A DNA stretch of 64,000 nucleotides from a virus (lineage: Duplodnaviria; Heunggongvirae; Uroviricota; Caudoviricetes): IMG/VR virus record IMGVR_UViG_3300043219_000435. The stretch is one strand, 5' to 3'. Under the pieces are notes generated by a model. That model was not told where the DNA came from. It saw nothing but the letters and a program-made list of their open reading frames with translations, and did no database searches. A program made the translations under genes and the position numbers. Below, piece after piece: positions 1 to 64,000 of this stretch (position 1 is its first letter; each line of letters begins with the position of its first letter).

Positions 1-127
1 TTAATAAGGTTTTTAGTTTAGTAAAATATTTAACCATATATTCCACATTGACAGTGGCTATGGTGCTTGTATAACTCTTAAAAGCCTCTAGCTGTTCATT
101 TACCATATCATTAAATTCTTTATTCAT
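1..127 (-). CDS. hypothetical protein, N-terminal part (gene continues beyond window start)
   Basis: Reverse-complement reads ATG at 125-127 then MNKEFNDMVNEQLEAFKSY... with no stop before the window edge. Confidence 0.3.
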   Translation of the reverse strand, partial: MNKEFNDMVNEQLEAFKSYTSTIATVNVEYMVKYFTKLKTLL

Positions 128-232
128 AATATCCTCCGGTTAACTAAAGTATATTATAAACTGGTAGACATGTCAATATAATAAATGTACTTTAGTTTAA
201 GCCGGAGAATTGGAATACAGGTGATTCTCTAA

Positions 233-372
233 GAGTCTGTGGCGAAATAGATATGCTAAAAGCTCTGTAATGGGGTATAGTCAGTAGATGTGGTCCCTGT
301 AAACCGAAAGGCAGACGGGGTTAGTTCTGAGAAAGCCTTACATCTTGTAGGAATCGAATCCTTCCAGGCTCT
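233..372 (+). ncRNA. tRNA-like / Y-RNA-like structured RNA, copy 1 (approx. 140 nt)
   Basis: 5' GAGTCTG pairs with 3' CAGGCTC (one G-U); D-arm-like GGCGAAATAGATATGC follows the 5' strand; T-arm-like AGGAATCGAATCCT precedes the 3' strand; approx. 90-nt structured insert where the anticodon arm would be; ends in a T-run. Confidence 0.55.
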
Positions 373-396
373 TTTTTAAACTAAAGTGAGGTATTA

Positions 397-717
397 ATGT
401 CAATCGACAGACGTGATTATTTAGTAACAGGTTATAAATTACCAGGGGATTTCTTAAACGATTATGATGAAGAAATACTTTTGCCGTATATTGAAGGAAG
501 ACAAGGATTAGAATATCGTATTATTGCCGATAGTATGTGTGGTGAATATGTAGTATTTGGATATGTTCACAGCTCATCTTCTTCCGATGTAGGTTGGGAT
601 TTTGTAGAGATTAATATTGAATGTTACAATGATAACATACTTAAACAGTTTCATAGTTTATTTTTCAAAGAACCTGATGTACCGTTAACTACTTTTATAT
701 TCAGCGAATTCTGTTAA
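397..717 (+). CDS. hypothetical protein
   Basis: ORF with RBS GAGGTATTA upstream; follows the AACTAAAGT motif. Confidence 0.45.
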   Translation: MSIDRRDYLVTGYKLPGDFLNDYDEEILLPYIEGRQGLEYRIIADSMCGEYVVFGYVHSSSSSDVGWDFVEINIECYNDNILKQFHSLFFKEPDVPLTTFIFSEFC

Positions 718-729
718 AACTTTAGTTGT

Positions 730-873
730 GAGTCTGTGGCGAAATAGAAATGCTAATCATATAGGATAGGGTAGGCTTCCTTTGGGCGAAGCTAGAGAGT
801 GATGAATGGATCGTAACCTTACCAATGACCTTATATGGAACTCTCATGCAGGAATCGAATCCTGTCAGACTCA
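730..873 (+). ncRNA. tRNA-like / Y-RNA-like structured RNA, copy 2
   Basis: GAGTCTG...CAGACTC terminal helix; identical GGCGAAATAGAAATGC box; T-arm CAGGAATCGAATCCTG; internal long helix ATATAGG/CCTTATAT and GGTAGG/CCTTACC. Confidence 0.55.
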
Positions 874-924
874 TTTTTAAACTAAAGTAGTTATAGACGT
901 GTCAACAGAATTTGACTACTTTAG

Positions 925-1542
925 TTGCCAAAAAGGATTATAATGAAATATTTAATAATAATAGCTATAACACTAATTACTTCTTGTGTAACAGACCCTA
1001 CACCTCCTGATTTGTCCTCCATAGAAGCTAAACATGAGGCACTTCAAACTAAAGTAGATTCATTGTCACAGATACCAACTAAAGTAGATACGGTTGTTAT
1101 TAATGATACTGTTACTGTGTTTGACACTTTAGTTGTGAATGACACCTCGTTTGTTGTTACTAAGGATACAATGTTTTTTGTTACTAATGATACTATGGTA
1201 GTTCGAGATACTTTAGTTGAATTTGTCCAACAAGATGTTGTAAAGTCGGTTGGTGTTGAAAGATTCAATAGAGCAGATTTTGATTTGGCAGACCTGGGCT
1301 ATCATATGTATAGTCAGGAATATACATACTGTTCAGAAGATAATCCCAGGTTGATAATTATCCAACTGTCAGGAACAGACGATGGTGTTTTTGTTCCATT
1401 ATCGTTGATTGTGGATTTATTTGATAGACACGACATGTTTTTAAGTTTTGTTCATAACAACTGTAGTTTTTCATTTGCTACAAACGATTTAGATTATCTA
1501 CTAGCAAACTATCAATATTATAAAATAATTATGATAGACTAA
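925..1542 (+). CDS. lipoprotein with degenerate V.NDT/DTLV repeats
   Basis: Signal peptide and lipobox (LITSC); 6 short repeats encoded by reiterated ACTAAAGT/ACTTTAGTT-like DNA. Confidence 0.5.
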   Translation: MPKRIIMKYLIIIAITLITSCVTDPTPPDLSSIEAKHEALQTKVDSLSQIPTKVDTVVINDTVTVFDTLVVNDTSFVVTKDTMFFVTNDTMVVRDTLVEFVQQDVVKSVGVERFNRADFDLADLGYHMYSQEYTYCSEDNPRLIIIQLSGTDDGVFVPLSLIVDLFDRHDMFLSFVHNNCSFSFATNDLDYLLANYQYYKIIMID

Positions 1543-2169: not shown

Positions 2170-2194
2170 TTAACTAAAGTAAAAAGGAAATAAC

Positions 2195-3253
2195 ATGAAG
2201 ATATTAATACTATTAGTATTATCAATTTTGTCTATTGTAAGTGGTGCAAACATAGATGAAGATTATTTAATTTGTCGAGAATTTGAAAAGAAAAAAGATT
2301 GGACTAAAGTAATTGAGTATTGTGACAAATCTATAAAGAACAAACCTGATGGCAACAACCCATATCATAAGTTATGTATAGCACATAGTATGGTAGGCAA
2401 TAATGAGAAAGCTATTGAAAATTGTACCGTAGTTATAGTTCGTAAAAAATTAAGTAAAGATTTACAATACTCGTCATATTATTATAGAGCATTTGCAGGT
2501 TATAAGTTAAAGTATTATGATAAAGCTCTAATGGATATAGAGAATGCTATCACCTTAAACCAAAAAGGTATGGATCAATATATATTACAAGGTAAAATTA
2601 GATATAGCTTAAATGAATATAAAAAAGCTGATATAAGTTTTTCTCGTGTTATCAACCAGGATCGCAATAATTATACTGCGACATATGGTAGATATCTCAC
2701 AAGGTTAAAGTTAGGTAATTACAAAGGTGCATATACTGATATAACATATGCCATAGATATTAATAAAAGTAAACCTTCTACAAAAGACCTATCCAAGTTA
2801 TATGTATTACGTGGTATAGTATCGAGTAAATTGACTAGATACAAGCAGTCATTTGTAGATTTTAATCATGCACTTAGTGTAGATTCTACAAATTATAAGT
2901 CGCATGTTGGAATAGCGCAACTTAAACATAAGTTGTGCGACTATTATGGTGCTATTCAATCATACAACAATGCTATAAAATTAAGTAAAATTAATTCATC
3001 ACTTTTAACATATCGTGCAGAATCATGGTCTGAATTAAGTGAATATAAAAATGCACTGGCAGATTGCAACAGTGCCATTAAAATAGACGCTAACTACGCA
3101 AAAGCATATTATATGCGTGGTATGATACGAATAAAACAAAATATACTAGACAATAAAGGTTTGTATGATTTGTCTATAGCTGCAAATTTAGGCATGTTTA
3201 AGGTGTATAACGTTTTAAGAAAAATACACAATAAACGGAATTCACCAAACTAA
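2195..3253 (+). CDS. secreted TPR-repeat protein
   Basis: Signal peptide; repeated A..Y..A/KA.Y.RG TPR-like helices. Confidence 0.5.
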   Translation: MKILILLVLSILSIVSGANIDEDYLICREFEKKKDWTKVIEYCDKSIKNKPDGNNPYHKLCIAHSMVGNNEKAIENCTVVIVRKKLSKDLQYSSYYYRAFAGYKLKYYDKALMDIENAITLNQKGMDQYILQGKIRYSLNEYKKADISFSRVINQDRNNYTATYGRYLTRLKLGNYKGAYTDITYAIDINKSKPSTKDLSKLYVLRGIVSSKLTRYKQSFVDFNHALSVDSTNYKSHVGIAQLKHKLCDYYGAIQSYNNAIKLSKINSSLLTYRAESWSELSEYKNALADCNSAIKIDANYAKAYYMRGMIRIKQNILDNKGLYDLSIAANLGMFKVYNVLRKIHNKRNSPN

Positions 3254-3279
3254 AGTAGTTTTGTTGAACAAGGAATATT

Positions 3280-3602: not shown

Positions 3603-3884
3603 ATGATAAAAATAATGTCATTGGCTGTAATATTGATCACTATGTGTTGGTTATGTTTTACCATCAAAATATACCATCTAACCGATAGTTTAGCAGCGAC
3701 TTTAGTTATTGGTTCTTTTGGATTGTTTATATCTTTGTATTTTTGGATAGATTTATATTTTGTAAGTTGTAGATACAGAGCTAGAAACTATATAAATGAA
3801 ACATTGTCCAATAACGACAAACCATCTGCTTCAGCTGCAGATCGAAACATTATGAAAATGATTAAAAACTGGAAACTAAAGTAG
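3603..3884 (+). CDS. small membrane protein
   Basis: Two predicted TM helices; RBS GGAATAG. Confidence 0.45.
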   Translation: MIKIMSLAVILITMCWLCFTIKIYHLTDSLAATLVIGSFGLFISLYFWIDLYFVSCRYRARNYINETLSNNDKPSASAADRNIMKMIKNWKLK

Positions 3885-3890
3885 GTTACG

Positions 3891-4070
3891 ATGAAAGATA
3901 TTAAGAAAGGTTACTACTGGGTGAAGTTTTACAACCATGATGTTATGCAAGTAATGTTGTTTAATGGCAAGAACTTTGAAGGTTTCAAGAGTGACAACTT
4001 AATACCCGATGAGATAGAGGGTTACGAGTATATTGATTACCCACCAGTGGGCTTGTGTAACGACAACTAA
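3891..4070 (+). CDS. hypothetical small protein (59 aa)
   Basis: ATG preceded by AACTAAAGTAGGTTACG; ends within the motif. Confidence 0.3.
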   Translation: MKDIKKGYYWVKFYNHDVMQVMLFNGKNFEGFKSDNLIPDEIEGYEYIDYPPVGLCNDN

Positions 4071-4210
4071 AGTACTTCCCATGGTTCTATATCTTCTTTT
4101 ACTAATATATCGTACATACGGGTTTTTGGATTATATTTGTATGTAGGACCATATTTTTTAACGGGTTTCGGTCCAACTAAAGTATCGAGGTGTTTAACGA
4201 GTTCTGTCAC
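4067..4210 (-). CDS. mini member of the LDTLV...WEV family (47 aa, GTG start)
   Basis: Translation VTELVKHLDTLVGP...EPWEVL; no ATG, so the start is uncertain. Confidence 0.3.
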   Translation of the reverse strand: MTELVKHLDTLVGPKPVKKYGPTYKYNPKTRMYDILVKEDIEPWEVL

Positions 4211-5631: not shown

Positions 5632-5971
5632 ATTTCCCTCCACATTCGCTGCAGAATTTATGTGGACATCCTGTTGTATAATCTTCATGCCAATGTTCGT
5701 AATTACAGTAAGGACAATTGTATTTAACATTTCTAAAGCTATCTCTTTCTGTAGTTGTAACAATTCTTTTCTTTGTTTCAACTAAAGTATTCATATGATA
5801 TTTTACTTTAGTTGCGAGTTTTTTGGCGCATTCTCCGCAGAATTCTACACCTTTATCTTCATAGCTCAAACTAAAGTAGTCACCGAATTCATCAGATATA
5901 TCATGTCCACACCATGAACCTACAAGTTCATATTCTTTTTTACATTTTTTACATATTGTCATATTTCCCAA
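5624..5971 (-). CDS. zinc-ribbon-rich protein
   Basis: Multiple CxxC pairs (CKKC, CGEC, CPYC, CSEC). Confidence 0.45.
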   Translation of the reverse strand: MGNMTICKKCKKEYELVGSWCGHDISDEFGDYFSLSYEDKGVEFCGECAKKLATKVKYHMNTLVETKKRIVTTTERDSFRNVKYNCPYCNYEHWHEDYTTGCPHKFCSECGGKYE

Positions 5972-6318
5972 CCTTGATATGTTAAATTGTTATTAGGATA
6001 CAAAATCAGTCTACATTTTTCATCTAAAGACATATAATCTGCACCTATACATTTGAAATCTGCAAATGAAGACATATAATCTGTGCTTCTTTTAAAGATA
6101 GAAATGATATTAACTTGATACATCCATACGGTGGTGTTTTTGTATTTTACAATATATATTACATTTTCATCATGAATATCTCTTTCTATGTGGAATTCTT
6201 CAAAAACTAAAGTGAAGTCATCATTATATTTTGTAGCCACCTCTAATATAACATCATACAATTTTTGATGTAATGGAGATCTTATTCCAACTAAAGTATC
6301 GAGATGTTCTGGTGTCAT
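5959..6318 (-). CDS. LDTLV...GWEV family protein
   Basis: MTPEHLDTLVG...YQGWEI; the track ORF extends to 6330 (MGSE-) using an ATG that lies inside the upstream gene's GWE codons. Confidence 0.55.
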   Translation of the reverse strand: MTPEHLDTLVGIRSPLHQKLYDVILEVATKYNDDFTLVFEEFHIERDIHDENVIYIVKYKNTTVWMYQVNIISIFKRSTDYMSSFADFKCIGADYMSLDEKCRLILYPNNNLTYQGWEI

Positions 6319-6575
6319 TTCACTTCCCAACCTTCGTGTTCATCATGTTTTTTATACAATTTTGTTGTGCGGTCGAATACCTTACATAATATATCTTCTA
6401 AAGTATCAAATGCCTTAAACTCTATTACATATACTACACCAAAAGCATGTAAGGAAACCCAATGTTTTTTGTTATTTAAATATTCTATTACTTTAGTTTT
6501 AGCTACATGGAATTCATATAATATAAACGGATCTATATCAGGCACAACTAAAGTGTCCAGGTGTTCCGGTGTCAT
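6315..6575 (-). CDS. LDTLV...GWEV family protein
   Basis: MTPEHLDTLVVP...HEGWEVK; ATGA stop/start overlap with its neighbours. Confidence 0.55.
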   Translation of the reverse strand: MTPEHLDTLVVPDIDPFILYEFHVAKTKVIEYLNNKKHWVSLHAFGVVYVIEFKAFDTLEDILCKVFDRTTKLYKKHDEHEGWEVK

Positions 6576-6733
6576 TTTACTTCCCATCCATTTTCAATAG
6601 GTCTATAATTAGCTTTGTATTTGATATCTAAATAACGGTTATCAACCGTATAAAATCTACAGTATCTCCCTTCAATTATACAATAGCCATAATTATCAGG
6701 TACAACTAAAGTATCGAGGTGATCGGGTGTCAT
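6572..6733 (-). CDS. LDTLV...GWEV family protein (53 aa, absent from the ORF track)
   Basis: MTPDHLDTLVVPDNYGYCIIEG...ENGWEVK; fills the gap between its neighbours and has the same junction repeat. Confidence 0.5.
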   Translation of the reverse strand: MTPDHLDTLVVPDNYGYCIIEGRYCRFYTVDNRYLDIKYKANYRPIENGWEVK

Positions 6734-6963
6734 TTCACTTCCCATCCAGGATGTTGTATTTCTTCCCGATATTCTTGTACGTAGAACAGTTCTTTAAATT
6801 CTTGTACTGTCATATGGAATGTTTCCCAACCTTTATCATTCCCGAACCATACAGCAAAATAATGTGACCATGGTCCATAGCATGTAATAGTACCTCGATC
6901 CCATTGTTTTATATCAAGATCTGGATGATCTATTTTGCTTATAGCTGTTCCATAATCATTCAT
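6730..6963 (-). CDS. GWEV-C-terminus family protein
   Basis: ...HPGWEVK; sigma70-like TTGACT-N17-TATACT lies immediately upstream of the ATG (leaderless-like). Confidence 0.5.
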   Translation of the reverse strand: MNDYGTAISKIDHPDLDIKQWDRGTITCYGPWSHYFAVWFGNDKGWETFHMTVQEFKELFYVQEYREEIQHPGWEVK

Positions 6964-7034
6964 CTTTAAAGTATAATAAAAATATATAGACGAGTCAATA
7001 AAAAATATGTACTTTAGTTAAAAAGGATTAATAT

Positions 7035-7307
7035 ATGACTGGTGAACAGTTAGATGAATACCATAGAAAGCAGCAAGTTGCTATAGATTTTTGGAAGAAG
7101 CGAGGAGCTACTGACAAAGAGATATTGTGGTTTGAGCGTGGTGCGTGTACTGGAATGCATAATTATCGTAATATGTTATATGAGAATAAACAACAAGATA
7201 ATATTATGGTTGAGATGGAAGCTATGAAAGCAGCTAATAAAGTACGAGAACAGAATAATGAAGCTTTAAAGTATTCAGAAGAGTCATTTATGGATTTGAT
7301 AGAATAA
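7035..7307 (+). CDS. hypothetical protein
   Basis: GTCAATAAAAAATATGTACTTTAGTT promoter-like box followed by RBS AAAAGGA. Confidence 0.45.
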   Translation: MTGEQLDEYHRKQQVAIDFWKKRGATDKEILWFERGACTGMHNYRNMLYENKQQDNIMVEMEAMKAANKVREQNNEALKYSEESFMDLIE

Positions 7308-8083: not shown

Positions 8084-8307
8084 ATATGTCAGAAGTAGAA
8101 GTAGTAAACGTTTGGGTATCGATCTCAGGAGATTATTGTGCATTCCATGAGATGGGTTTTTCAGTAGTATATGACATAACAAATGATATTCAGTTTGATG
8201 ATATGACATTAAAGGAATTGAAAGCTTTCAAAAATGATGGTGATTACTGTGATTATGAGAAGCGTAAAGCATTGAAAGATGGTAAGAATTATTATGTCAA
8301 ATGGTAG
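8068..8307 (+). CDS. hypothetical protein (weakly related GDYC motif)
   Basis: ORF with RBS AGGAGTAAAT. Confidence 0.4.
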   Translation: MEEGVNMSEVEVVNVWVSISGDYCAFHEMGFSVVYDITNDIQFDDMTLKELKAFKNDGDYCDYEKRKALKDGKNYYVKW

Positions 8308-8334
8308 AAGCAACTAAAGTAAAAAGGAATAAAT

Positions 8335-8745
8335 ATGGCAAAGAAATTAATAGCTAACAAAGGTTATACAGTTGAAGTTGAATCCTGGGAAAATGATGGT
8401 GATTATCGTGCAACTGAAACCATTGTCTATGAAAACAAGGAAAAGGCTTTAGCATTACTTAAGTTGTGCAAAAAATTGTTTTCTGATGGGGACGGTGGTA
8501 TTGGTAATGGTATGGGTGGATCTGAAGAGAAGATTAAAGCGTATGCAAAAAAGAACCGCAAGGTTATATCTACACTTTTTGGTGAAGATATTGATATTGA
8601 TAACGGGGATCATATTGTAGACTCCATTCGTGATTTAAAAGGTGATATAATGGGTTATACTGAAATATATGACTCAAGAGTATTTGAGAGTGGAACTGTA
8701 TATTATTCACCTGAAGATGTATATTTAGAAGTGATAAAAAAGTAA
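8335..8745 (+). CDS. SW.NDGD...ALA.LKLC family protein
   Basis: VESWENDGDYRATE...EKALALLKLC; RBS AAAGGAATAAAT. Confidence 0.45.
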   Translation: MAKKLIANKGYTVEVESWENDGDYRATETIVYENKEKALALLKLCKKLFSDGDGGIGNGMGGSEEKIKAYAKKNRKVISTLFGEDIDIDNGDHIVDSIRDLKGDIMGYTEIYDSRVFESGTVYYSPEDVYLEVIKK

Positions 8746-9145: not shown

Positions 9146-9572
9146 AGTTTTTATGGATTCGAGCATTAAGATTTATACTAAAGAAGAGAATCCTGATATG
9201 ACCTATTATGGGTTTTTAGATTTCTTATATAATGAAGGTTGTAAAAAACCATATTATAGAACTAAAGATACTCAGTTTTATAATTCGATGTATGGTCCAT
9301 ATCATAATTGTTTACGTTTGATGAGATCTAGATATAACCAATCTGGATTTTATCCTGGATGGGACATCCGTGAAGATCGTAGAAAGTTACGTAGGTTGTT
9401 CTTCTATAAATTGGAAGAAGAGGTACAGGCAGCTTTAAATCCGTTAAAATTGGATGATACAATGACGTGGGCAGCTTTAAGTTTGGATCAAGGTGGTTAT
9501 ACATCAATTGATGTTGAATACACTTCACAGACTCTATTTTCAACTGGTAAAGGTTGGGAAATAAATAGTTGA
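9132..9572 (+). CDS. hypothetical protein with a GWEI-type C-terminus
   Basis: MKEYKVF... start with RBS AAGGTGGA; ends ..GKGWEINS. Confidence 0.4.
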   Translation: MKEYKVFMDSSIKIYTKEENPDMTYYGFLDFLYNEGCKKPYYRTKDTQFYNSMYGPYHNCLRLMRSRYNQSGFYPGWDIREDRRKLRRLFFYKLEEEVQAALNPLKLDDTMTWAALSLDQGGYTSIDVEYTSQTLFSTGKGWEINS

Positions 9573-9602
9573 CAAACTGAAGTGATTAATGTACTTTAGT
9601 TG

Positions 9603-9763
9603 TGCGCTGTTGGCGAAACATTGTGCAGACGCTCAGGGATCATAACTCTTATTTAAATTGACTAAGACAAGCATCCCTGGATTTGCGAATGGAAGATTGC
9701 GAGGGGTATACACCGGACAATTGGAAACGAGTAGAATAGGGGTTCGAATCCTTTACGGCGCAT
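9603..9763 (+). ncRNA. tRNA-like / Y-RNA-like structured RNA, copy 3
   Basis: TGCGCTG pairs with CGGCGCA (covarying relative to copies 1 and 2); TTGGCGAAACATTGTGC box; T-arm-like AGGGGTTCGAATCCTTT; starts directly after TACTTTAGTT. Confidence 0.55.
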
Positions 9764-9784
9764 TTTCAACTAAAGTGAATAAAC

Positions 9785-13535: not shown

Positions 13536-13639
13536 ATATAGAAAGTATATAAAAAATAAAGTTGAGTCAATAAAAATATAGACCAGTTAATAAAAACATA
13601 TTACTTTAGTTACTACGGATTAATAATTGGAGTATATAA

Positions 13640-14297: not shown

Positions 14298-14666
14298 ATG
14301 TATAGCTTAAATTATAAACTAAAGTGTGAAGAATGCAAAAAGAATTTTACCGGTCGGATGAATGGTAAGTTTTGTTGTTCTTCATGTGCAACGAAGAATT
14401 GGAAGAATAACAATAAAGAGAAGATAAAAAAGAGATCACTGGAATGGTATAAAGAAAATCGTGAAGAACGTTTAAAGAAATCAAAGAAATATCGTGAAGA
14501 GAATCGTGAGAAGGCTTTAACATATGGTTTTTGGTATTATCAAAAGAATCGTCAAATAATTATTGATCGAGCGCAGGAATATCATAAAGCTAATCGTGAT
14601 AAATTATTACCTCGAATGAGAGCGTATATGGCTAAAAGACGTAAAGAAGAATTGGGGAACGTATGA
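14298..14666 (+). CDS. basic Cys-containing protein
   Basis: MYSLNYKLKCEECKK..CCSSC; K/R/E-rich; the ATG overlaps the junction GGTTGGGAAGT. Confidence 0.4.
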   Translation: MYSLNYKLKCEECKKNFTGRMNGKFCCSSCATKNWKNNNKEKIKKRSLEWYKENREERLKKSKKYREENREKALTYGFWYYQKNRQIIIDRAQEYHKANRDKLLPRMRAYMAKRRKEELGNV

Positions 14667-19718: not shown

Positions 19719-19886
19719 TTGTTGAATACAACTGAAGTAATTGTTACTTTAGTTGTATTGGTTTATAGCTAAAGCTGTCGGCTATTGTATATTCGTTAAA
19801 AAGGACACACCATAATGTCAGCCTCGCTTTCAAGGCCGAGACATAGGGAAAGCTTCGATGAATATTCATAAATCATACTAGGGAAA

Positions 19887-34201: not shown

Positions 34202-34279
34202 TTATTGATCCTTTAATTAAAAGTATTAACTAAAGTAATTCAAATGTATATTGTTGTCAATAAAAAAAATGGATCTAAA

Positions 34280-38725: not shown

Positions 38726-38913
38726 AGTATACCAAATGTTATATCTAAGTAATAATATAACTAAAGTACTTTAGTTTGTCAATGGAATACAAATCATTTC
38801 AACATTTTCTATTGGATATTCTTTCCGTTCAGTAAATAACATCTTTAATTCAAATTCTTCGAAACTTGATGCTTCTTCATTAAATATGTAATCTTCTAAT
38901 GTCATCTTTTCAA

Positions 38914-41181: not shown

Positions 41182-41195
41182 TTTAAATCCTTAAG

Positions 41196-41270: not shown

Positions 41271-41276
41271 ATAATA

Positions 41277-41591: not shown

Positions 41592-41604
41592 TTTAACTCC
41601 TAAG

Positions 41605-47316: not shown

Positions 47317-49531
<2,215 letters not shown>

Positions 49532-56619: not shown

Positions 56620-56878
56620 CGATATTTAAAACCCTTTCAGGATCTGTATTATTTCTAATACAGTCTATATGTTTTTCTAATTGATAAAGACTGTCCGATT
56701 TTAATAATGTATTTAAATAATCTACAAGAGATTCATTGGTCATACCACCCCAGGACGTAGATAATTCCATTGTAACAATATCATTCTTGTTTACAATTCG
56801 TAACCACCATCCCAAAGTATTACTAAAGCCAAATATCAGCTTATTATCGTTTTTAGTATGACCTTGAAATACAGACAT
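56612..56878 (-). CDS. hypothetical protein
   Basis: ORF. Confidence 0.35.
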   Translation of the reverse strand: MSVFQGHTKNDNKLIFGFSNTLGWWLRIVNKNDIVTMELSTSWGGMTNESLVDYLNTLLKSDSLYQLEKHIDCIRNNTDPERVLNIDA

Positions 56879-57924
56879 TAATTAGTAATACCTAATATGA
56901 ATTCACCTACTGTATTGGCCCACGCAACTCCAATACCTCTTGATAAAGTATAGAAAGCATATACAGCATAACAAGTAAGAAGGAAGGCTGCAGTCTTATA
57001 ACCTAATTTTTTTAACGAAAGGAAAATGAATAATAAGACTACAGTCAATCCTAAGAGCAATATTCGTAGTTCAGCAACACCAGCATCTATTGTTATGGTT
57101 GGTTCTTTTATTAAAGTAAATGCTAATAATGGGACTCCAAGACAAATACATATATCAAATATATTTGATCCTACAGCATTACTTACAGCATCATCATAAT
57201 TACCTTTTTTAGCATCTTTCATACTGATAATTGTATCGGGGACTGAAGTGGCTGCAGCAGCAATAATAACGGCTATAAAGAACGTAGGTATCTCTAAAAT
57301 CTTTGCAATTTCAACTACTGAGAAGGACATGATAAAACAACCTATACCAATTGATACAATTGCTCCAAGTAATAATAACCATGCTTTTTTGGTAGTCATT
57401 CCATTAAAGTCTTCTTCATCATCATCTTCAGAACGCACTTTAGTTGAAATTTTATTATGGATGTATAGAGTTAAAGCATAAAGGATATAAATTCCTATTA
57501 AAACAGCACCCATCCACCATTCTAATTTACCATCTGTTAATATTAATATTAAAGCCAATTCAGCAAGAATAAAGAAAAAACCATCTCTTATAATAACAAC
57601 TTTATTTATTGAAATGTTTTTGAGATTTGGTATAAATTTTAAAGCTGATACAATTACTAAACCAGGAATAATAAATGCATTAAATACACTAGATCCGGCA
57701 GTAGTTCCAATTGCTGCTGCAAATTCCTTTTCACCAAAAATAAACAAGAAGATAATAGTTGTCCATAATTCGGGCATAGAGCTGCCTATAGCGTTTATTG
57801 TGGCACCTTTAATGCCTGGGCCGAGATTTCTTCCAAGATAGCTTGAAGCGTCCTCAAACGGGTCACATGACTTCATTATCCATAAACAACCTACAATTAC
57901 TAATGCTAACCATAAAAATATCAT
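56878..57924 (-). CDS. Ca2+/cation antiporter (CaCA family, YrbG/NCKX-like)
   Basis: 10-TM-like hydropathy with two alpha-repeat signatures, GSSMPEL and GSNIFDI. Confidence 0.65.
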   Translation of the reverse strand: MIFLWLALVIVGCLWIMKSCDPFEDASSYLGRNLGPGIKGATINAIGSSMPELWTTIIFLFIFGEKEFAAAIGTTAGSSVFNAFIIPGLVIVSALKFIPNLKNISINKVVIIRDGFFFILAELALILILTDGKLEWWMGAVLIGIYILYALTLYIHNKISTKVRSEDDDEEDFNGMTTKKAWLLLLGAIVSIGIGCFIMSFSVVEIAKILEIPTFFIAVIIAAAATSVPDTIISMKDAKKGNYDDAVSNAVGSNIFDICICLGVPLLAFTLIKEPTITIDAGVAELRILLLGLTVVLLFIFLSLKKLGYKTAAFLLTCYAVYAFYTLSRGIGVAWANTVGEFILGITN

Positions 57925-57933
57925 TATATCTCC

Positions 57934-58542
57934 TTATTTTATAATTTTCATATTAAAATCATCTTCATTTTCATCATAAGTGATTACACATGGTGATTTT
58001 GGTTTAACTTGCCATTCATCAAGTGTTTTATAATTTGAGTTTCCATCATAAATAGTAACTTCATGATCATCATTAAATGATGGCAATTTTCTTAATTTTT
58101 TAACAAGATCAAAAATATAAATGGCATATGCTTCATAAGCATGAATACTTTCATCGAGATCATGTGTAGAATAAAACTCTTCCATAAAATTAGAGCAATA
58201 TATTTCCCATTCAAATGCAGAACCCATACGAACATTCCAACCAGATAATTTAGCTTCATTACAAATATGAAGAAATGCTTTAAATTGTGCTTGGATAGTA
58301 GGCATTTGAAATATAACATAACATTTTTTCAAAGAATGCGATTTAGGTTCTTCTTCACCATCATATGAAAAACCACAACAAGAAAATTTTGTAGGGATAC
58401 CTATTCGGTGCATCTCATATATAAGAGGTTTCATAGGTCTGTCAATCGAATTCCAAACAGATTTTTCATTACTATCAGCATTTAAAGATTTTAATCTTTT
58501 GCTATAGTTTAAATAATTGGAATCTTCCACTATATTTGTCAT
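57934..58542 (-). CDS. hypothetical protein
   Basis: ORF of 202 aa. Confidence 0.4.
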   Translation of the reverse strand: MTNIVEDSNYLNYSKRLKSLNADSNEKSVWNSIDRPMKPLIYEMHRIGIPTKFSCCGFSYDGEEEPKSHSLKKCYVIFQMPTIQAQFKAFLHICNEAKLSGWNVRMGSAFEWEIYCSNFMEEFYSTHDLDESIHAYEAYAIYIFDLVKKLRKLPSFNDDHEVTIYDGNSNYKTLDEWQVKPKSPCVITYDENEDDFNMKIIK

Positions 58543-58593
58543 ATATTTCCTTTAAATTAGGTATGGGGAAAGGCCATCCCCCACACCTAAATA

Positions 58594-59211
58594 TTATGGA
58601 TTTGTTTGAAATCCAAATGAGTGCAACAGGTCGCCAAGATCTTCATTTGATCCTTGACCTTGTGGGTGGAATTTCCACGCATCATTCTTTTTGTAAATTT
58701 CAAATACTCTCATGAATTTGAATTGACTATAATCTTCAGTAAGATCATACTCAACCAATTTTTCACCACTTGCATCATCAACAATACTAATTTGAGCGTT
58801 AACAGCTTGACCAAGATTCAAACCTGTCTGACCTTCTTTTTCATCAATTGAAATAAAGAAAGCGATTTTTGCTTTTGGTACTGTAGAAAGTTTTGCAACG
58901 ATTTCTTCAACTGAAAGACCGTCAGTTCCACCGTCAAGAACATCACCTGAGTGCATGATTGCACCTTCAGCAATAATTTTCTTGCCATCAGAATTTACAG
59001 TTTCGGTATTATAAAACAATAAATCCTCTGCACATAACATTTTGTCATTTTCATCAAGCATGATTGCAGATAAATCCAAATCAATTGCTTCAGTCATTGC
59101 AGGACTTTTTCCCCAACTTAAAACAGCTTTTACTTTGTCAAGTCCTGGAAGTGCTTTTGTAAGGTCGATTCTTACACCAGTTTGTGCTTTTTGTAAATTA
59201 ATTACAGTCAT
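58594..59211 (-). CDS. TerD-family protein (TerZ/TerE-like)
   Basis: VRIDLTK..LDLSAIMLD...GDVLDGGTDG...KFMRVFEIYKKNDAWKF matches the TerD fold signature. Confidence 0.7.
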   Translation of the reverse strand: MTVINLQKAQTGVRIDLTKALPGLDKVKAVLSWGKSPAMTEAIDLDLSAIMLDENDKMLCAEDLLFYNTETVNSDGKKIIAEGAIMHSGDVLDGGTDGLSVEEIVAKLSTVPKAKIAFFISIDEKEGQTGLNLGQAVNAQISIVDDASGEKLVEYDLTEDYSQFKFMRVFEIYKKNDAWKFHPQGQGSNEDLGDLLHSFGFQTNP

Positions 59212-59263
59212 ATTATTTCCCTTCCTAAATCATTTGAGGCCGAAGCCCCAAACGATAAGTTAA

Positions 59264-59740
59264 TTAAGCTTCTTCTGTGTCTGCAACGTCTTCAGTTGTT
59301 TCTACAGTAGTTTCAGTAACAGTTTCTTCTACAACAGTTTCTTCTGCTTCAACAGCAGGGAGAAGTGCATAAAGTTCGTCAAGAGCAGGATCAATTGATG
59401 TTGCTTTAGCTTTGATCTCTCTAAGAAGAGCTTGTTCGTTGTCATCTAATGAACCATCACCAGAGATTTTGTCAAACAGATATTTTGCTTCGTCTGCATC
59501 AACAACACCTGGAGTTTTTTCATCAGCAAGAACACCATCAGTAATAGCTTTAACAAATAGAGTTTTGAATGATGAATCGAAGTTGCCACTTTCTGAAACA
59601 GCATCATTGAGATCAAAAAGAACATCCATTTCTTCTTTATCAACAATACCATCTGCATAGATAGTAGTTTCGAGTTGTTTTACTTCTTCTGCGTCAATTT
59701 TACCGTCAGCAAGTATATCTTCTTTTAATTTTTGTAACAT
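59264..59740 (-). CDS. terB: TerB-family protein
   Basis: Repeated DG.ID.EE...L acidic helical motifs typical of TerB. Confidence 0.55.
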   Translation of the reverse strand: MLQKLKEDILADGKIDAEEVKQLETTIYADGIVDKEEMDVLFDLNDAVSESGNFDSSFKTLFVKAITDGVLADEKTPGVVDADEAKYLFDKISGDGSLDDNEQALLREIKAKATSIDPALDELYALLPAVEAEETVVEETVTETTVETTEDVADTEEA

Positions 59741-59808
59741 AAGTTACTCCTTTTTCGTTATTAGGTTAAAAGCGCATTTAACCCTGCGCTACAGGTTAAT
59801 TTTTTTGA

Positions 59809-60489
59809 TTAGTTCATCAATCCACGAAGTCTTCCCATAATCCCACCACCGGAATTACTAGAAGATGAATCTTGACTTGGAGTAGAACCGGAACTATAAT
59901 CTTTTGATGCAATAGCTCGTTCCATTTCTGCAATATTATTATGATTTGTAGCAATACCGAGGGCATTGAATTTCCATTCACCATTGTGACGATATACTTC
60001 ACCAAAGAAAAGGGCTTTATTGTCAGCAACAGATTTATCATCACTCAAAGTAAACTGATATAAATCTTTTTTAGAATCTGCATTTGAAAGACGAATCCAT
60101 GCATTTTTAAGATCTTTGAATTTGAAACCACTACTAAAAGTATTCATTATGATAACACATTTATCAACATCAGCAGCTACAGAATCAAAAATAACATCAA
60201 TTTTTTCATTTGGTGCATCAGCTCTTCCACCACCATCCAAATCGTCACCATGATGCTTAACACCTCTACATGAACTATTAAATTTTTGATATGAAACGGT
60301 TTCTTTAACTTTACCATCAGCTTTAACTAATACAATAGAAGCATCAAGATCGATTGTTCCCATTCCTTTTTTAGCCCAACCCATTCCCAACTGAAGTTTC
60401 TTCAAACCATCATGTTTTTTAGTAAGATCAATTCGTTGACCTTTATCTATTTTCTCTAAATTAATTACACTCATATGCACTCCTACCAA
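59809..60489 (-). CDS. terD: TerD tellurite-resistance-family protein
   Basis: QRIDLTK..IDLDASIVL..HGDDLDGGG...IDVIFDSV...FGEVYRHNGEWKFNALG. Confidence 0.8.
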   Translation of the reverse strand: MVGVHMSVINLEKIDKGQRIDLTKKHDGLKKLQLGMGWAKKGMGTIDLDASIVLVKADGKVKETVSYQKFNSSCRGVKHHGDDLDGGGRADAPNEKIDVIFDSVAADVDKCVIIMNTFSSGFKFKDLKNAWIRLSNADSKKDLYQFTLSDDKSVADNKALFFGEVYRHNGEWKFNALGIATNHNNIAEMERAIASKDYSSGSTPSQDSSSSNSGGGIMGRLRGLMN

Positions 60490-60855: not shown

Positions 60856-60911
60856 GCTCTACCAACTGAGCTACTTGCCCCCGTTATGGGCAAAGATGGA
60901 TTTGAACCACC
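60856..60911 (-). ncRNA. circularly permuted tRNA-like module B (YrlA-type Y-RNA-like)
   Basis: Minus-sense T-arm GGTGG-TTCAAAT-CCATC, acceptor 3' TTTGCCC, loop ATAAC, acceptor 5' GGGCAAG, TA, D-arm GCTC-AGTTGGTA-GAGC; preceded by the GTGTTGCAG..AGATACTTCG box. Confidence 0.5.
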
Positions 60912-61005
60912 GACACACAGCTTTACATACGAAGTATCTTATTCCTGCAACACCATTTAAAACATAAAAAAATTATAGGAAAAAATCAATCAGAGAGAAT
61001 ATCGT

Positions 61006-61061
61006 GCTCTACCAACTGAGCTATTCCCCCATGTTACGGGGAAAGATGGACTCGAACCACC
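61006..61061 (-). ncRNA. circularly permuted tRNA-like module C
   Basis: T-arm GGTGG-TTCGAGT-CCATC, TTTCCCC, G TAACAT, GGGGGAA, TA, GCTC-AGTTGGTA-GAGC; same flanking box. Confidence 0.5.
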
Positions 61062-61218: not shown

Positions 61219-61275
61219 GCTCTACCAGACTGAGCTATCTCCCCACGTTACGGGGAAAGGTGGATTCGAACCACC
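61219..61275 (-). ncRNA. circularly permuted tRNA-like module D
   Basis: T-arm GGTGG-TTCGAAT-CCACC, TTTCCCC, G TAACGT, GGGGAGA, TA, GCTC-AGTCTGGTA-GAGC; same flanking box. Confidence 0.5.
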
Positions 61276-61381
61276 GACACACGGCTCCTAATGCGAAGTA
61301 ACTCTACACTGCAACACCATTTATTTAATATTTTAAAAATACAATAAAAAGAATGGTAAAAATCAATATAACAAATTTTTT

Positions 61382-61434
61382 TCTCTACCAATTGAGCTAT
61401 ATCCCCCTGGGGGAACAATCGGACTCGAACCGAT
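61382..61434 (-). ncRNA. circularly permuted tRNA-like module E (short loop)
   Basis: T-arm ATCGG-TTCGAGT-CCGAT, TGTTCCC, CCA, GGGGGATA, D-arm GCTC-AATTGGTA-GAGA; variant flanking box. Confidence 0.4.
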
Positions 61435-61541
61435 AACCTTTTGTATTTCAAACAATCGAAGTAAGTCATATTTGCAACACATTCTTTTTATTTTATTCTT
61501 AAAAAATTAGTAGGTAAAAAACGTAATAAGTGGTCTTTTGT

Positions 61542-61611
61542 TTACAATACCGGGATTGAACCAGTAACGTTTGATTAGCTATCAAATGCTCTACCAGTTG
61601 AGCAAATTGTA
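61542..61611 (-). ncRNA. tRNA-like element, canonical order but atypical (A33 in anticodon loop TAGCTAA, terminal acceptor mismatch)
   Basis: D-arm GCTC-AACTGGTA-GAGC, anticodon arm TTTGA-TAGCTAA-TCAAA, T-arm ACTGG-TTCAATC-CCGGT, acceptor GTACAAT/ATTGTAA; preceded by the flanking box. Confidence 0.35.
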
Positions 61612-61797
61612 CGAAGTAACTTATAACTGCAACACTACTAAAAGTTTTAAATTATAATAATCAGGTAAGTATCGAGGATAGTGTCTAGTTTTTTATTTTG
61701 AGAAAAAATTTTTCGAAGTAACTATTCCCTGCAACACTAATTATTATTTTTTATTAATTTCTTATCTATATATAAAGATAATAAAGATCAAAGTTAT

Positions 61798-61833
61798 AGT
61801 CAACCATTATCTTTCAAATGGCTGACTTTTTTA
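61798..61833. terminator. hairpin plus T-run abutting the Ro60 stop codon
   Basis: TAGTCAACCA..TGGCTGACT followed by TTTTTT on the plus strand; orientation relative to a transcript is unclear. Confidence 0.35.
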
Positions 61834-61834
61834 A

Positions 61835-63517
61835 TTATAAATCTACAGCATTTACCATGTCAATAATACCATGCTTCATAGTTTCCATTTCAACTACACT
61901 CTTAAGAAGATTATCACTCCATCCGCTAAGATGCATGTAATTATTATTCTTAGGATCTAACTGAGTAGAACTATCATTTGCTGCCAAGTTAAATTCATAA
62001 ACCTTAATTGACTTATTCACTTTAGTTTGATAAGTTTTAAGATCCTGGAACAAACTTGATCCACCATTATATGATCCGTTAAACTGACAATCAGTGAATA
62101 CGAACATTTGATCAACATGTATATTTCGCTTTGTAATATCTTGCATTACAGAAGCAAAATTTGTTGAATGACCAACTGAAGTACTCATGATCTGTTTAAC
62201 TCGATCAAGAGGATTATGTTTACGTTCATCAACTGCTACTATTTTCTCATGATTACCGAAACCATAAATAATTGATTTATCACAATACTGTTGCGCCAAT
62301 GAACCCATAACAGCACCGATTTCCATATAAGTAACAGATCCTTCTGCAGACAAAAGAGTATTCATAGAAGCTGACAAATCAACAGCAATTACGGTATTAC
62401 CATTCATCTTTGGTACATTCTTACCGGAATGCCATAATGCTTTATTAAGAGCACTTAAATAACGATCCCTGACAGTTCTAGTGTTTTCAGTGCCAGACCC
62501 ACCATATTTAGAATCGAAGGGATCTGTATTTTTATGTCCCCAACCACTCGTATTATATCCAGAGTTTCCACCAATAGCTTTATACGCACTCCAATATCTG
62601 AAAGGGAATTGTTTGCCTTTTTCTACTGCAGTCTCATTGGATAAAAACTGAAGTGCCATTCTATGTGCTTCTTCTGACAAACCACTTTCAATGATGTTAC
62701 GAATATTTCTTAACAAAGCCATATAAGGAAGTTTTTTAGCAAGAATTAATTGTTCCCAATTATCTTTTTTGGCAGCATCAACTTCTTTTTTCACTTCAGT
62801 TTTAGTCTTACCTTTTTTATCAATCTGACCGGCACCTGAAATTTTATTTTCCCAGGTATTTGCTTTCTCAAGAGTACCGTTCATAAATTTCTTCCAAAGC
62901 TCAGCTTGATCAGAATCAATTGGTTTAGGTCTAAGAATTCTGAAAATATCTCTCAATTTAACTTCTTTCTTAGCAGCTTTGTATTTGTCCAACTGATAAG
63001 CATCAAATTTTGAAATAGAATTTTGTAAACCAATTCTCAATTGTTTTGAAAGTTTTTTCTTGATATGTCTAGAACCATGTACAGTTGTTTTTTCTTTACT
63101 GTAATTATAAATCAAGTAAGAGATAATTTCTGTAATATCATCAACACGACAAGTAACTCTTTCAGCAACAGTTTTAACAACTGAAGTATCAACATCTTCT
63201 TTTTCATTTAACTTAGAAACAATTCTTGAAAGTTCCGCAGTCAATACATGAGAAACACTTCTTAGATTAAACTTTTCACGGCTTAATACAGCAAGTTTAG
63301 CAAGAAATACAGGATCTTCTTTACCGACTTTGTCGATAAGTTTATGTAGTTCTTTATCAGATTTGTATCCGCTTTTATAAAATTTATCTTGACCATAGAA
63401 ACACGTTAAAACTCTATCACACAAATCTTGATAGATAGATTTTTCAAATGCTTTTACTCCATCACATGAAGTAGTCATTTTACGTGTTTTTTTCGGAGTG
63501 GTATTAAACTTAGACAT
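61835..63517 (-). CDS. rsr: Ro60/TROVE-domain protein (Rsr orthologue) with a C-terminal vWA/MIDAS domain
   Basis: 560 aa; a helical TROVE-like N-terminal two-thirds and a C-terminal VIAVDLSASM (DxSxS MIDAS)...T...D vWA; adjacent to the tRNA-like RNA cluster, with rtcB in the same genome region. Confidence 0.6.
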   Translation of the reverse strand: MSKFNTTPKKTRKMTTSCDGVKAFEKSIYQDLCDRVLTCFYGQDKFYKSGYKSDKELHKLIDKVGKEDPVFLAKLAVLSREKFNLRSVSHVLTAELSRIVSKLNEKEDVDTSVVKTVAERVTCRVDDITEIISYLIYNYSKEKTTVHGSRHIKKKLSKQLRIGLQNSISKFDAYQLDKYKAAKKEVKLRDIFRILRPKPIDSDQAELWKKFMNGTLEKANTWENKISGAGQIDKKGKTKTEVKKEVDAAKKDNWEQLILAKKLPYMALLRNIRNIIESGLSEEAHRMALQFLSNETAVEKGKQFPFRYWSAYKAIGGNSGYNTSGWGHKNTDPFDSKYGGSGTENTRTVRDRYLSALNKALWHSGKNVPKMNGNTVIAVDLSASMNTLLSAEGSVTYMEIGAVMGSLAQQYCDKSIIYGFGNHEKIVAVDERKHNPLDRVKQIMSTSVGHSTNFASVMQDITKRNIHVDQMFVFTDCQFNGSYNGGSSLFQDLKTYQTKVNKSIKVYEFNLAANDSSTQLDPKNNNYMHLSGWSDNLLKSVVEMETMKHGIIDMVNAVDL

Positions 63518-64000
63518 CGCACAGCTCCTTTTAATTAGTTTTAAACCGACACATTCGGTTTGTTAATATAAGTATAGCAACTTTTATATTAACCGTCAAT
63601 ACTTTTAAGTAACTAATTTCATTTTATATAAATTGGAGTGTAATTACATTAATATTTTCAATAAATTTAAACTTATTATCATAATGATCTATATGCATCA
63701 TTTCATGAATATAGATTTTATCCTTATTAATAATTTTATAATAATGAACCACAACATTGTAGTTATTTTGTAACGCGAAATCTTTTGAATACATGGCTAA
63801 TCCTTAATAGAGATTATATACTAAGTTATTTATTTAACGTTGTCAATAAATTTATAAATATAATATAAGGATGAGACCTGAGAGGCAGAATGAATACTTT
63901 AACTAAAGTAGATTTTAAAGAATTAATAGCACAATTTATAAATTTATACGGACAGAATTTTATATGGTTTATTATAATTTTTATTTCTTTTTTCTTTTTA

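Follow-up and report, generated by a model that had tools for sequence, protein, structure and literature searches.

The 9-nt word AACTAAAGT (reverse complement ACTTTAGTT) occurs 121 times in a 64,000-nucleotide stretch of tailed-phage DNA (Caudoviricetes; IMG/VR virus record IMGVR_UViG_3300043219_000435), hereafter the window, in which it is the most frequent 9-mer by a wide margin. Dinucleotide-preserving shuffles of the same DNA yield 1.46 +/- 1.25 copies, with a maximum of 5, which places the enrichment at about 80-fold and bears out an earlier note on this DNA, made from the letters alone, that had counted more than 100 copies where about 2 are expected. We put at roughly one in two the probability that this is a clade-specific, selected, genome-wide DNA word of huge T4-related phages that doubles as a promoter core and as a recombination joint resembling the promoter-early stem-loop (PeSL) elements of T4-type phages. 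Going beyond the earlier note, the word belongs to a family of variants with complementary ends, is selected genome-wide and is present throughout a clade. A full-text literature search with either strand of the word returned only incidental primer and sequence matches and no phage motif.

We hypothesize that a clade of huge T4-related phages keeps the word at roughly 1-3 per kb, on both strands, in and between genes. Copies within genes would be read on DNA by a clade-specific protein, and because such reading would be independent of the direction of transcription, it would belong to replication, recombination or packaging rather than to RNA. Between genes, the word would form part of early promoters, at their -10/start region, and of the junctions between cistrons. 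It would also offer a short patch of identity between otherwise unrelated neighbors, at which T4-type recombination could swap gene cassettes.

A family of words with complementary ends

The exact copies (65 on the plus strand and 56 on the minus strand) populate a window of 31% G+C, with a peak of about 3.5 per kb at 1-16 kb compared to about 1 per kb at 40-64 kb. Two one-letter variants are also strongly enriched, and the family as a whole, distributed over positions 1..64000 on both strands, consists of the 121 exact copies, 34 copies of AACTGAAGT and 25 copies of AGCTAAAGC. The half-changed forms AGCTAAAGT and AACTAAAGC are present in one copy each, and the double variant GCTGAAGC is found 7 times where 1 copy is expected. 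When the bases on either side of CTAAAG are tabulated, the pair A..T (ACTAAAGT) occurs 126 times and the pair G..C (GCTAAAGC) 31 times, while all other end pairs occur at most 13 times and mixed forms of the two are down to 1-2 copies; the mixed-end, non-complementary versions of the word are ACTAAAGC and GCTAAAGT. The neighboring positions are also constrained, with G as the 5' base in only 2 of 121 copies, and with A (80 copies) or G (26 copies) as the usual 3' base and T rare (11 copies).

The word is thus a family, R-CT-R-AAG-Y, whose two end bases must be complementary (A..T or G..C). Its fuller form is about 11 bp long, asymmetric and quasi-palindromic, (not G)-A-R-C-T-R-A-A-G-Y-(A/G), with the R of position 2 complementary to the Y of position 9. 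Complementary ends point to a symmetric reader or to base pairing. Members of the whole family are spaced about 0.7 kb apart per strand, and those on the bottom strand are spaced slightly more evenly than random (coefficient of variation, CV, 0.80; random 0.82-1.21).

Copies within genes and their effect on proteins

Sixty-three of the 121 copies lie wholly within open reading frames (ORFs), 50 are intergenic and 8 cross a gene edge. The ORF copies show no strand bias (34 sense, 29 antisense), which makes an RNA-level role unlikely, and the G and C variants are found mostly in ORFs (30 of 34 copies of AACTGAAGT, 23 of 25 copies of AGCTAAAGC). The earlier note placed most copies 8-25 nt ahead of start codons, but only 31 of 121 lie at most 40 nt upstream of a called start, compared to 10.7 expected. 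These 31 include 18 that face the gene as TACTTTAGTT and 13 that face it as AACTAAAGT, and a copy within this distance precedes 30 of the 126 called genes and is absent from the other 96. The embedding of stop codons described in the same note is real but minor, with 7 copies overlapping a gene end where 1.9 are expected. Intergenic copies in either orientation are found between a stop codon and the next Shine-Dalgarno (SD) sequence; the junction copy at 8312..8320 (+), in the AACTAAAGT orientation, lies between the stop of ORF 8086-8307 and the SD and ATG of ORF 8335-8745.

In nearly all ORF copies the codons are xxA-ACT-AAA-GTn (Thr-Lys-Val, TKV) or ACT-TTA-GTT (Thr-Leu-Val, TLV). The window encodes 29 TKV tripeptides where composition predicts 5.2, and 30 TLV tripeptides where it predicts 4.4; exactly the codons of the motif are used in 26 of the 29 and 27 of the 30, a usage that codon frequencies predict for about 11-13%. 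The same codon pattern is seen in the tripeptides of the variant words (AKA, ALA, TEV, and TSV). Shuffling synonymous codons within genes reduces the in-ORF count from 63 to 11.5 (maximum 22), and shuffling codon order reduces it to 1.2. Counts above both shuffles, together with the excess of motif codons, indicate that codon choice and amino-acid sequence are both shifted toward the DNA word. Selection, or a drive, on the DNA word has changed codon choice and protein sequence, and the earlier note's proposal of an action on DNA or RNA rather than a constraint on coding is supported by the tripeptide and codon excess and by the codon shuffles.

Conserved genes carry the word, as had been noted, including a CoaBC-like ORF (24773), Sir2 (16595), and LigA (47854, 48302, 48493, and 48770); the copy attributed to the flotillin gene was not found as an exact word, and only the variants AACTGAAGT and AGCTAAAGC are present there. 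All four LigA copies (47854..48778, +) are in frame, reading TKV at 47854 and 48493 and TLV at 48302 and 48770. Three of the four occupy sites at which LigA homologs differ (NKTKVEF, RYTLVSS, and CASTLVKPE), and in the 63%-identical ortholog of a relative (L123, below) two of the four sites have the same word, one has switched to the G variant and one is lost.

A tandem family of paralogs has a conserved N-terminus, M-x-x-E-H-L-D-T-L-V-G-P, in which the word is embedded, as at 6289..6297 (-); further members carry it at 6546, 6704, 11592, 12020, 12293, 12680, 13030, and 34704. These paralogs of about 90-145 aa form tandem arrays on the minus strand of the window (5959-6575, 6730-6963, 11271-12322, 12706-13403, and 34368-34739) and at two loci of a relative described below (L063 3386-5448 and L129 1-700). 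A C-terminal P-W-E-V is common among them and each stop abuts the next start. The most over-represented tripeptide of the window is GWE (12 vs. 0.7 expected). We considered the paralogs as a candidate reader protein and rejected them, as they have no Pfam or PHROG match.

A subset of copies in probable promoters

Every copy was set in the orientation TACTTTAGTT and scored at the -35 position. Among 58 intergenic copies, 10 have a -35 with at least 5 of 6 matches to TTGACA at a distance of 16-18 bp, compared to a background of 2% (copies at 189, 9593, 22861, 24336, 28091, 34228, 35163, 35833, 39387, and 40207). Four further promoter copies, at 918, 7011, 13603, and 36286, share TAGACnnGTCAATA-N9-TACTTTAGTT (TAGACN type), and two more, at 142 and 43670, fit the register TTGACA-N17-TATACT-TTAGTT. 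In the roughly 16 promoter copies, TACTTT supplies the T, A, and final T of the -10 hexamer, and predicted start sites fall on the first base of tRNA-like RNA genes (189, 719, 9593, and 17431) or just before an AAAGGA or GGAG SD. Scores at the -35 position are only background for the in-ORF copies and for all copies in the opposite orientation. The sigma-70 arrangement (TAnnnT with a TTGACA-like -35 at 16-18 bp) is thus found in a subset only. About 16 intergenic copies in the TACTTTAGTT orientation are probably sigma-70-type promoters, presumably early ones, in which the word would supply the -10/start region. The promoter or -10-like role proposed in the earlier note therefore stands for these copies with a -35 and not for those in ORFs or in the other orientation, and the word is not mainly a gene-start signal.

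Several of these promoters form recognizable modules. At 142..197 (both strands), the back-to-back module AACTAAAGTA-N36-TACTTTAGTT has overlapping -35 sequences (TAGACA on the plus strand, TTGACA on the minus strand), with TAGACATGTCAA acting as the -35 sequence on both strands. It would serve a minus-strand gene ending at 127 and a tRNA-like RNA gene at about 229-377, and it is kept at 89-92% identity in two places in L063. The promoter TAGACG-N17-TACTTTAGTT at 6987..7019 (+) has a GTCAATA box in its spacer, followed by an SD and the ATG of ORF 7035-7307, and a near-identical twin of this module lies at 13579-13611. Both the pair of near-identical blocks (7011 and 13603) and the GTCAATA box had been noticed before; the box is real, and is part of the repeated module TAGACnnGTCAATA-N9-TACTTTAGTT at 189, 918, 7011, 13603, and 36286. 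A TTGACA-N17-TACTTTAGTT promoter at 9569..9601 (+) stands ahead of a tRNA-like RNA gene, and the variant AACTGAAGT in its spacer (9575) is able to base-pair with the -10 copy by means of a G-U pair. Ahead of gene 33542-34201, the TTGACA-N17-TACTTT arrangement that the earlier note called textbook is exact, at 34228..34260 on the minus strand (TTGACA-N17-TACTTTAGTT), with a 26-nt leader containing AAAGGA before the ATG.

A generic sigma-70 scan was uninformative in this A+T-rich window (128 matches vs. 124 in shuffles). Other promoter classes were considered and rejected. T-R-CTT-Y-A resembles the TGCTTYA-like MotA box found at -30 of T4 middle promoters, but no TAnnnT peak occurs 11-13 bp downstream. 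A T4-type late promoter (TATAAATA-like) is excluded by the ATG 0-23 nt from copies in the AACTAAAGT orientation, by the SD that abuts the copy and by the occurrence of both orientations. A T3/T7-type promoter was rejected on geometry and on the absence of conserved flanks.

The tRNA-like RNA genes lie on the plus strand at 229-377, 729-877, about 9603-9766, and about 17440-17515, and on the minus strand at about 38370-38440, 13424-13535, 60887-61030, and 61251-61406. At 110-160 nt, they combine an acceptor stem and a GGAATCGAATCC T-arm with a large insert inside; Rfam scores some of them as tRNAs with long insertions, and ARAGORN misses them. The same genome encodes RtcB, Tpt1/KptA, PNKP, RlaP, PTH2, and Ro60/TROVE, and the RNAs may represent tRNAs with introns, or Y RNAs like YrlA, on which a phage-encoded set for RNA splicing and repair acts.

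Inverted pairs

The inverted pairs listed in the earlier note are all present (142/189, 880/918, 4175/4209, 17401/17431, and 40207/40250/40288), and their potential to form hairpins holds up on folding (-7 to -16 kcal/mol). Neighbors at most 60 nt apart comprise 16 inverted and 2 direct pairs (permutation p = 0.00065), and within 70 nt an exact partner is inverted for 31 copies and direct for 4, where about 15 are expected for either. The stems of the pairs are A/T-rich, with z-scores that reach -6.9, and in 3 of the 4 pairs that mix A and G forms, the sense strand has G facing U and not A facing C. Even when one mismatch is tolerated, about 75% of copies are unpartnered, so the hairpin is not the general unit. 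An excess of inverted over direct pairs is also expected in any case, because close direct repeats are lost by replication slippage, and several of the inverted pairs are back-to-back promoter modules.

Two further structures stand out by position. A 15-bp hairpin at 19726..19758 (+), formed by AACTGAAGT (19730) and ACTTTAGTT (19746), lies at a convergent gene junction (-15.2 kcal/mol, z = -6.1), and two inverted copies abut at 38759..38776 to form the perfect 18-bp palindrome AACTAAAGTACTTTAGTT on both strands. A role as intrinsic terminator was rejected, since the stems are A/T-rich and a scan of 1-20 kb gave 3 sites, none at a copy, where 5.7 are expected. The transcript-processing site suggested earlier is not favored either, because an RNA signal should follow the transcribed strand and the copies do not.

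Relatives, turnover and mosaic joints

The word is shared by a set of related loci, at 0.9-3.4 copies per kb in genomes of 31-36% G+C. Three of these loci belong to the 211-kb IMG/VR contig 3300037245_001419, with 28 main-word copies in 8.3 kb (L063), 18 in 7 kb (L129), and 6 in 6.2 kb (L074). The 25-kb contig 3300043218_000062 has 11 copies in 12.7 kb (L085), and the 249-kb JGI contig Ga0484852_0000002 has 23 in 20.5 kb (L131). A JGI contig syntenic with window 47-57 kb, whose LigA is 63% identical, has 11 main, 8 G, and 4 C variants in 12.5 kb (L123). Beyond the window, the same phage has 18 main-word copies in 20.5 kb (L127/L130). Two EF-Ts relatives of about 50% identity (L120 and L121) lack the word, which indicates that the clade carrying it is narrow. 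A search for relatives with a 319-aa protein found nothing, the flotillin query gave one distant match only, and the promoter-module pattern had 0 matches in metagenome_contigs and, in IMG/VR, matched only the 211-kb relative.

Two loci matched in pattern scans, L060 (IMGVR_UViG_3300031867_000025) and L117 (IMGVR_UViG_3300037400_003374), were rejected as relatives, having a different repeat, AACTAACT, and no proteins in common with the window. These unrelated viral contigs of 40% G+C have abundant words of their own in 10-14 kb, AACTAACT 26-34 times and ACTAACTAA 22 times. Their repeat may be the same phenomenon in another phage lineage or a tandem repeat.

Comparison of relatives reveals that density is maintained and variants are interchangeable, while orientation can flip and single sites are dispensable. 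Across 16 orthologous gene pairs of the window and L123, 5 of 13 copies are retained (4 as the same word and 1 as an A->G form), where 3.65% of aligned 9-mers are identical; with the tripeptide conserved, the word is kept in 4 of 6 cases, and identical amino acids share a codon in 50%. L130 and L131 are about 70% identical in nucleotides; of 21 family copies compared between them, 8 keep the same word and 3 have switched between the A and G forms, against a background of 8%. Retention is thus 5-10 fold above background, and each lineage also has private copies. In gene 14298, the in-ORF copy at 14317..14325 (+) encodes Y-K-L-K-C, and at the same codons L129 has the inverted ACTTTAGTT (H-T-L-V-C).

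Blocks of homology between the window and the 211-kb relative begin or end at copies. A tetratricopeptide-repeat (TPR) gene cassette at 2172..3259 (+) is bounded by direct copies at 2172-2180, before the SD, and at 3248-3256, which contains the stop TAA. It is 90% identical to L063 2126-3202 with unrelated flanks, and the homologous stretch runs from the first base of the left copy to 3 nt past the right copy. A mosaic block at 3873..4084 (+), 94% identical to L063 7565-7776, starts at the copy at 3874-3882 and ends 11 nt past the copy at 4065-4073, and the left end of a short block at 1563-1608 coincides with a copy that has one mismatch. For blocks 2172, 3873, 1563, and 8324 alike, the left edge is at most 3 nt from a copy; right edges lie 3 and 11 nt past one. 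Window genes 10966, 7319, 8335, and 14298 have homologs in L129, where the gene order differs and copies lie at the borders of each; upstream of gene 8335 the window has a junction-type copy and L129 has one of the promoter type (TACTTTAGTT), the homology beginning immediately past the copy. The recombination junction for gene cassettes proposed in the earlier note thus fits as an evolutionary footprint, although evidence that the copy itself is the joint comes only from edges that match it to the base.

A cassette that differs between relatives is likewise flanked by copies. In L130, a tyrosine-integrase cassette (2060-2884) lies between copies at 2015 and 2895, and in L131 a 73-aa ORF takes its place between copies at 2323 and 2707. 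The exchange end points within an element that characterize PeSL recombination are thus seen between these relatives, and the integrase cassette is copy-flanked. About 18 kb past the end of the window (L130 1922-2895), the integrase directly follows a phage tRNA gene, and L131 has the replacement at 2344-2715. The integrase may mark a small mobile element that targets the phage tRNA, or it may hint at lysogeny.

The genome and its possible host

The window encodes flotillin, Ro60/TROVE, RtcB, Tpt1/KptA, PNKP, RlaP, PTH2, EF-Ts, CoaBC/CoaDE, Sir2, TerD, a Na/Ca exchanger, an NAD-dependent LigA, and many small ORFs without assigned function. Among the 25 families listed, a Pfam scan of 118 window proteins recovers RNA-repair and membrane-stress genes. 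An Xre-type helix-turn-helix (HTH) gene is found at 51732-52040. A relative contig encodes a T4 gp62-like clamp-loader subunit (phrog_225), which indicates that the clade is T4-related in its replication apparatus. The window sequence is also found on a 131-kb JGI contig and on Logan contig SRR11832402_32223; a DNA search of window 45-52 kb against INPHARED phages gave no match, and an exact 40-mer was not found in IMG/VR.

The nearest cellular homologs of LigA (47540-49531) come from Fibrobacterales metagenome-assembled genomes (52-53% identity), and INPHARED phage homologs reach at most 45%. This likeness may be a clue to the host but is only a hint. In 44 kb around Fibrobacterales ligA genes, the nearest cellular LigA lineage, the word and its variants have 0 copies, and a literature search for Fibrobacter and huge phages returned nothing relevant.

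Several genes are of interest in their own right. Cell-like genes unusual in a phage include EF-Ts, flotillin with a YqiJ/NfeD-like partner, two TerD, and a Na/Ca exchanger (17864-18739, 31122-34201, and 56878-60474). Two tRNA-Trp(CCA) genes at 41195-41677 (-), with a 104-aa ORF (41277-41591) between them, lie about 140-620 nt downstream of the 3' end of RtcB (41816-42919, -). In both L130 (1034-5326) and L131 (1408-5102), a conserved cluster of an Apyc1-like (anti-Pycsar) metallo-hydrolase, NUDIX, and NAMPT looks like a module for counter-defense and NAD replenishment.

Weighing the explanations

No single known category covers all of the facts, since a promoter accounts for about 16 copies and a PeSL-like element for intergenic copies in the small-ORF region, and neither accounts for the roughly 60 copies in ORFs, which lie in both orientations, in conserved genes too, are kept at the expense of amino-acid changes, and most resemble the uptake and HIP1 words of bacteria. 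Within the earlier note, the observations of abundance, pairs, boxes and a promoter have held, unlike the position at starts and the flotillin copy; of its interpretations, action at the nucleic-acid level, a promoter subset and a cassette junction are retained, and a mainly gene-start signal and transcript processing are not.

Several observations weigh against a selected, genome-wide word with added promoter and joint functions. Main-word copies are clustered in the small-ORF region (spacing CV 1.17), where a pure coverage role predicts no clustering. The flanks (a strict A 5'; A or G, with T avoided, 3') and the center are asymmetric while the ends are complementary, and no one known recognition mode fits both. 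Among the 25 most frequent of 64 Pfam families in the 118 proteins scanned, there is no methyltransferase or evident sequence-specific nuclease. Copies sit at gene borders, so gene-sized blocks would end near copies anyway. In addition, the gene set consists of our own crude calls (126 genes, 83% of the window), and the sampled loci of the clade include no structural or late gene region.

A related but more specific reading, which we regard as a tentative minority position, is that the word is a genome-wide "self" signal, a viral counterpart of the uptake, Chi and HIP1 words of bacteria, read on transient single-stranded DNA by the T4-type replication-recombination machinery. In its concrete form, the word would be a preferred start site of the phage primase, with the template 5'-ACTTTAGTT-3' ending in GTT and a primer pppACUAA. 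Sites for priming or strand exchange would then recur every 0.7-1 kb per strand, and cassette exchange would be a side effect.

Of comparable, low standing is an operator of a phage-encoded global regulator that represses early promoters and sets roadblocks at junctions and in genes, like the stoperators of phage L5. At promoters the word is invariant over the -10 and four more bases, beyond the need of sigma-70, which suggests a second reader there, and enrichment at starts and stops, the quasi-palindromic core, the restriction of the word to the clade and the Xre-type HTH gene would all suit a regulator. An operator sits poorly, however, with half of the copies being in ORFs and with the absence of strand bias, since L5 stoperators are oriented relative to transcription and mostly intergenic; an asymmetric site of 9-11 bp is too short for a typical HTH dimer, and it is not obvious why a lytic T4-like phage would need a roadblock about once per kb.

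A purely promoter element, -10-like and used by host sigma-70 or a phage sigma, with the in-ORF copies as internal or antisense promoters or as near-misses, appears improbable as a full account. The approximately 16 convincing TTGACA/TAGACN-N17-TACTTTAGTT sites, with predicted starts at tRNA-like 5' ends or before an SD, are what it explains well. It does not explain why copies in ORFs and in the opposite orientation have only background -35 scores, or why copies are divided equally between sense and antisense. For copies in the AACTAAAGT orientation, an ATG at 0-23 nt leaves no room for a start site and an SD, no TAnnnT peak lies downstream as a MotA-like -30 box would require, and 96 of 126 genes lack the word.

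Similarly improbable, in our view, is a neutral by-product of biased mutation or repair. Very-short-patch-like repair tied to a DNA methyltransferase was once proposed for the cyanobacterial HIP1, and such a process would be genome-wide, independent of orientation and blind to coding status, as the word is, with copies that turn over and a quasi-palindrome like those of methyltransferase sites. Retention at 5-10 fold above background, specificity over 11 positions with asymmetric flanks, and stereotyped promoter positions with -35 partners argue against it, as does the lack of a methyltransferase among the Pfam families listed (25 most frequent of 64). Conservation of HIP1 has itself been used to argue for selection (PMC5861425).

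An RNA or single-stranded DNA hairpin of two inverted copies (a terminator, attenuator or processing site), with single copies as decayed halves, is doubtful, for although the inverted excess (16 vs. 2; 31 partnered copies vs. about 15 expected), z-scores down to -6.9, and G-U in 3 of 4 mixed pairs speak for it, about 75% of copies are partnerless, slippage removes direct repeats, several pairs are promoters, T-runs are few, and the complementary ends within a single copy are left unexplained.

Equally doubtful is an integron-like system, in which a dedicated site-specific recombinase or nickase would move cassettes by acting on the word as its core site. Serine recombinase crossover sites have inverted arms around an asymmetric central dinucleotide, and the core of the word likewise consists of short inverted arms around AA or GA; block edges exactly at copies, copy-flanked cassettes in differing gene orders and HNH genes conserved in the clade agree with such an enzyme. 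Yet sixty in-ORF sites per 64 kb would make deletions or inversions lethal, no sequence beyond 11 bp is conserved, the only recombinase seen, the tyrosine integrase at L130 2060-2884, is missing from the word-bearing L131, and T4-type homologous recombination needs only short patches of identity (PMC2839356).

Comparison with known systems

The uptake signal sequences (USS) of Pasteurellaceae and DNA uptake sequences (DUS) of Neisseria are words of 9-12 nt that recur about once per kb, on both strands and in coding as well as non-coding DNA, with intergenic enrichment, tolerated reading frames and frequent inverted pairs. The window word has all of these distribution properties. USS and DUS belong to competent bacteria, are favored in uptake and are not promoter cores, whereas the word here is phage-borne, with no uptake step. 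A word derived from the host, as USS/DUS or Chi would be, was rejected on the 0 copies in 44 kb of Fibrobacterales DNA, an assignment of host that is only a hint. A Chi-type hotspot was rejected on the same absence from candidate host-lineage DNA and on the mixing of strands (65 plus vs. 56 minus).

The highly iterated palindrome HIP1 (GCGATCGC) is 15-300 fold over-represented, with more than one copy per gene in some genomes, and is conserved within and between ORFs, implying selection, with no RNA, peptide or gene-regulatory role demonstrated (PMC5861425). The window word, about 80-fold enriched and conserved in ORFs, shows the same selection-maintained abundance. HIP1 differs in being a perfect palindrome with known methyltransferases in a bacterial phylum, whereas the window word is asymmetric, phage-borne and has a second job in promoters. 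An identity as a HIP1-like perfect palindrome with a methyltransferase site was rejected, since the center (AA or GA) and flanks are asymmetric and no methyltransferase is among the Pfam families listed.

PeSL elements of T4-type phages are repeated sigma-70-like early promoters with stem-loops in hyperplastic regions of small ORFans, and recombination between them inserts, deletes or replaces genes (PMC2839356, PMC4122927). The window resembles them in its promoter modules, which include inverted copies and lie in a small-ORF region, in block edges at copies, and in belonging to a clade with a gp62-like clamp loader. Promoter and stem-loop modules are found at 142-197, 880-926, 9575-9601, and 17401-17439, with A/T-rich stems, and most copies are single or in ORFs. 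PeSLs, in contrast, are tens of bp long, intergenic and have G/C-rich stems, whereas the window word is 11 bp, with half of its copies in ORFs (LigA included) and both orientations at junctions.

Among phage elements, the stoperators of L5 and the start-associated sequences of Cluster K are reportedly asymmetric, 13 bp long and present in dozens per genome near starts and stops. They are oriented with transcription and almost wholly intergenic, at about 0.3-0.6 per kb. The window word is orientation-neutral, half in ORFs and 2-6 times denser.

The T4 primase (gp61) recognizes the template 5'-GTT-3' (GCT in vitro), of which the 3' T is required and is not copied (PMC4488733). Likewise, the last three bases of ACTTTAGTT are GTT, the final T being almost invariant, and those of the variant GCTTTAGCT are GCT; enrichment at the middle base is confined to these two forms, and the density of the window family is about 1 per 0.7-1 kb per strand. 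Known primases, however, read 3-5 nt rather than 9-11, and a priming site leaves unexplained the complementary 5' base, the promoter role and the clustering of the main word (CV 1.17).

Two further likenesses were set aside. The word equals the inner 9 nt of the Gram-positive LexA box (GAAC-N4-GTTC), but the preceding G and following T are avoided. The TerB site of the Tus-Ter system includes AACTAAAGT, but the flanks of the copies lack the GTTGTAAC core.

Hyper-abundant selected words are known from bacterial chromosomes (USS/DUS, Chi, and HIP1), and to our knowledge none has been described for a phage. Selection for an 11-bp word has visibly reshaped proteins here, with Thr-Lys-Val and Thr-Leu-Val 6-fold over-represented, even in the housekeeping LigA. 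The complementary-ends rule is a sharp constraint on any proposed mechanism. The word would help explain the shuffling of accessory genes in these phages and could serve as a compact signature of the clade in metagenomes. A reader protein, if found, would reveal a new layer of genome organization in huge phages, in priming, recombination, packaging or global regulation.

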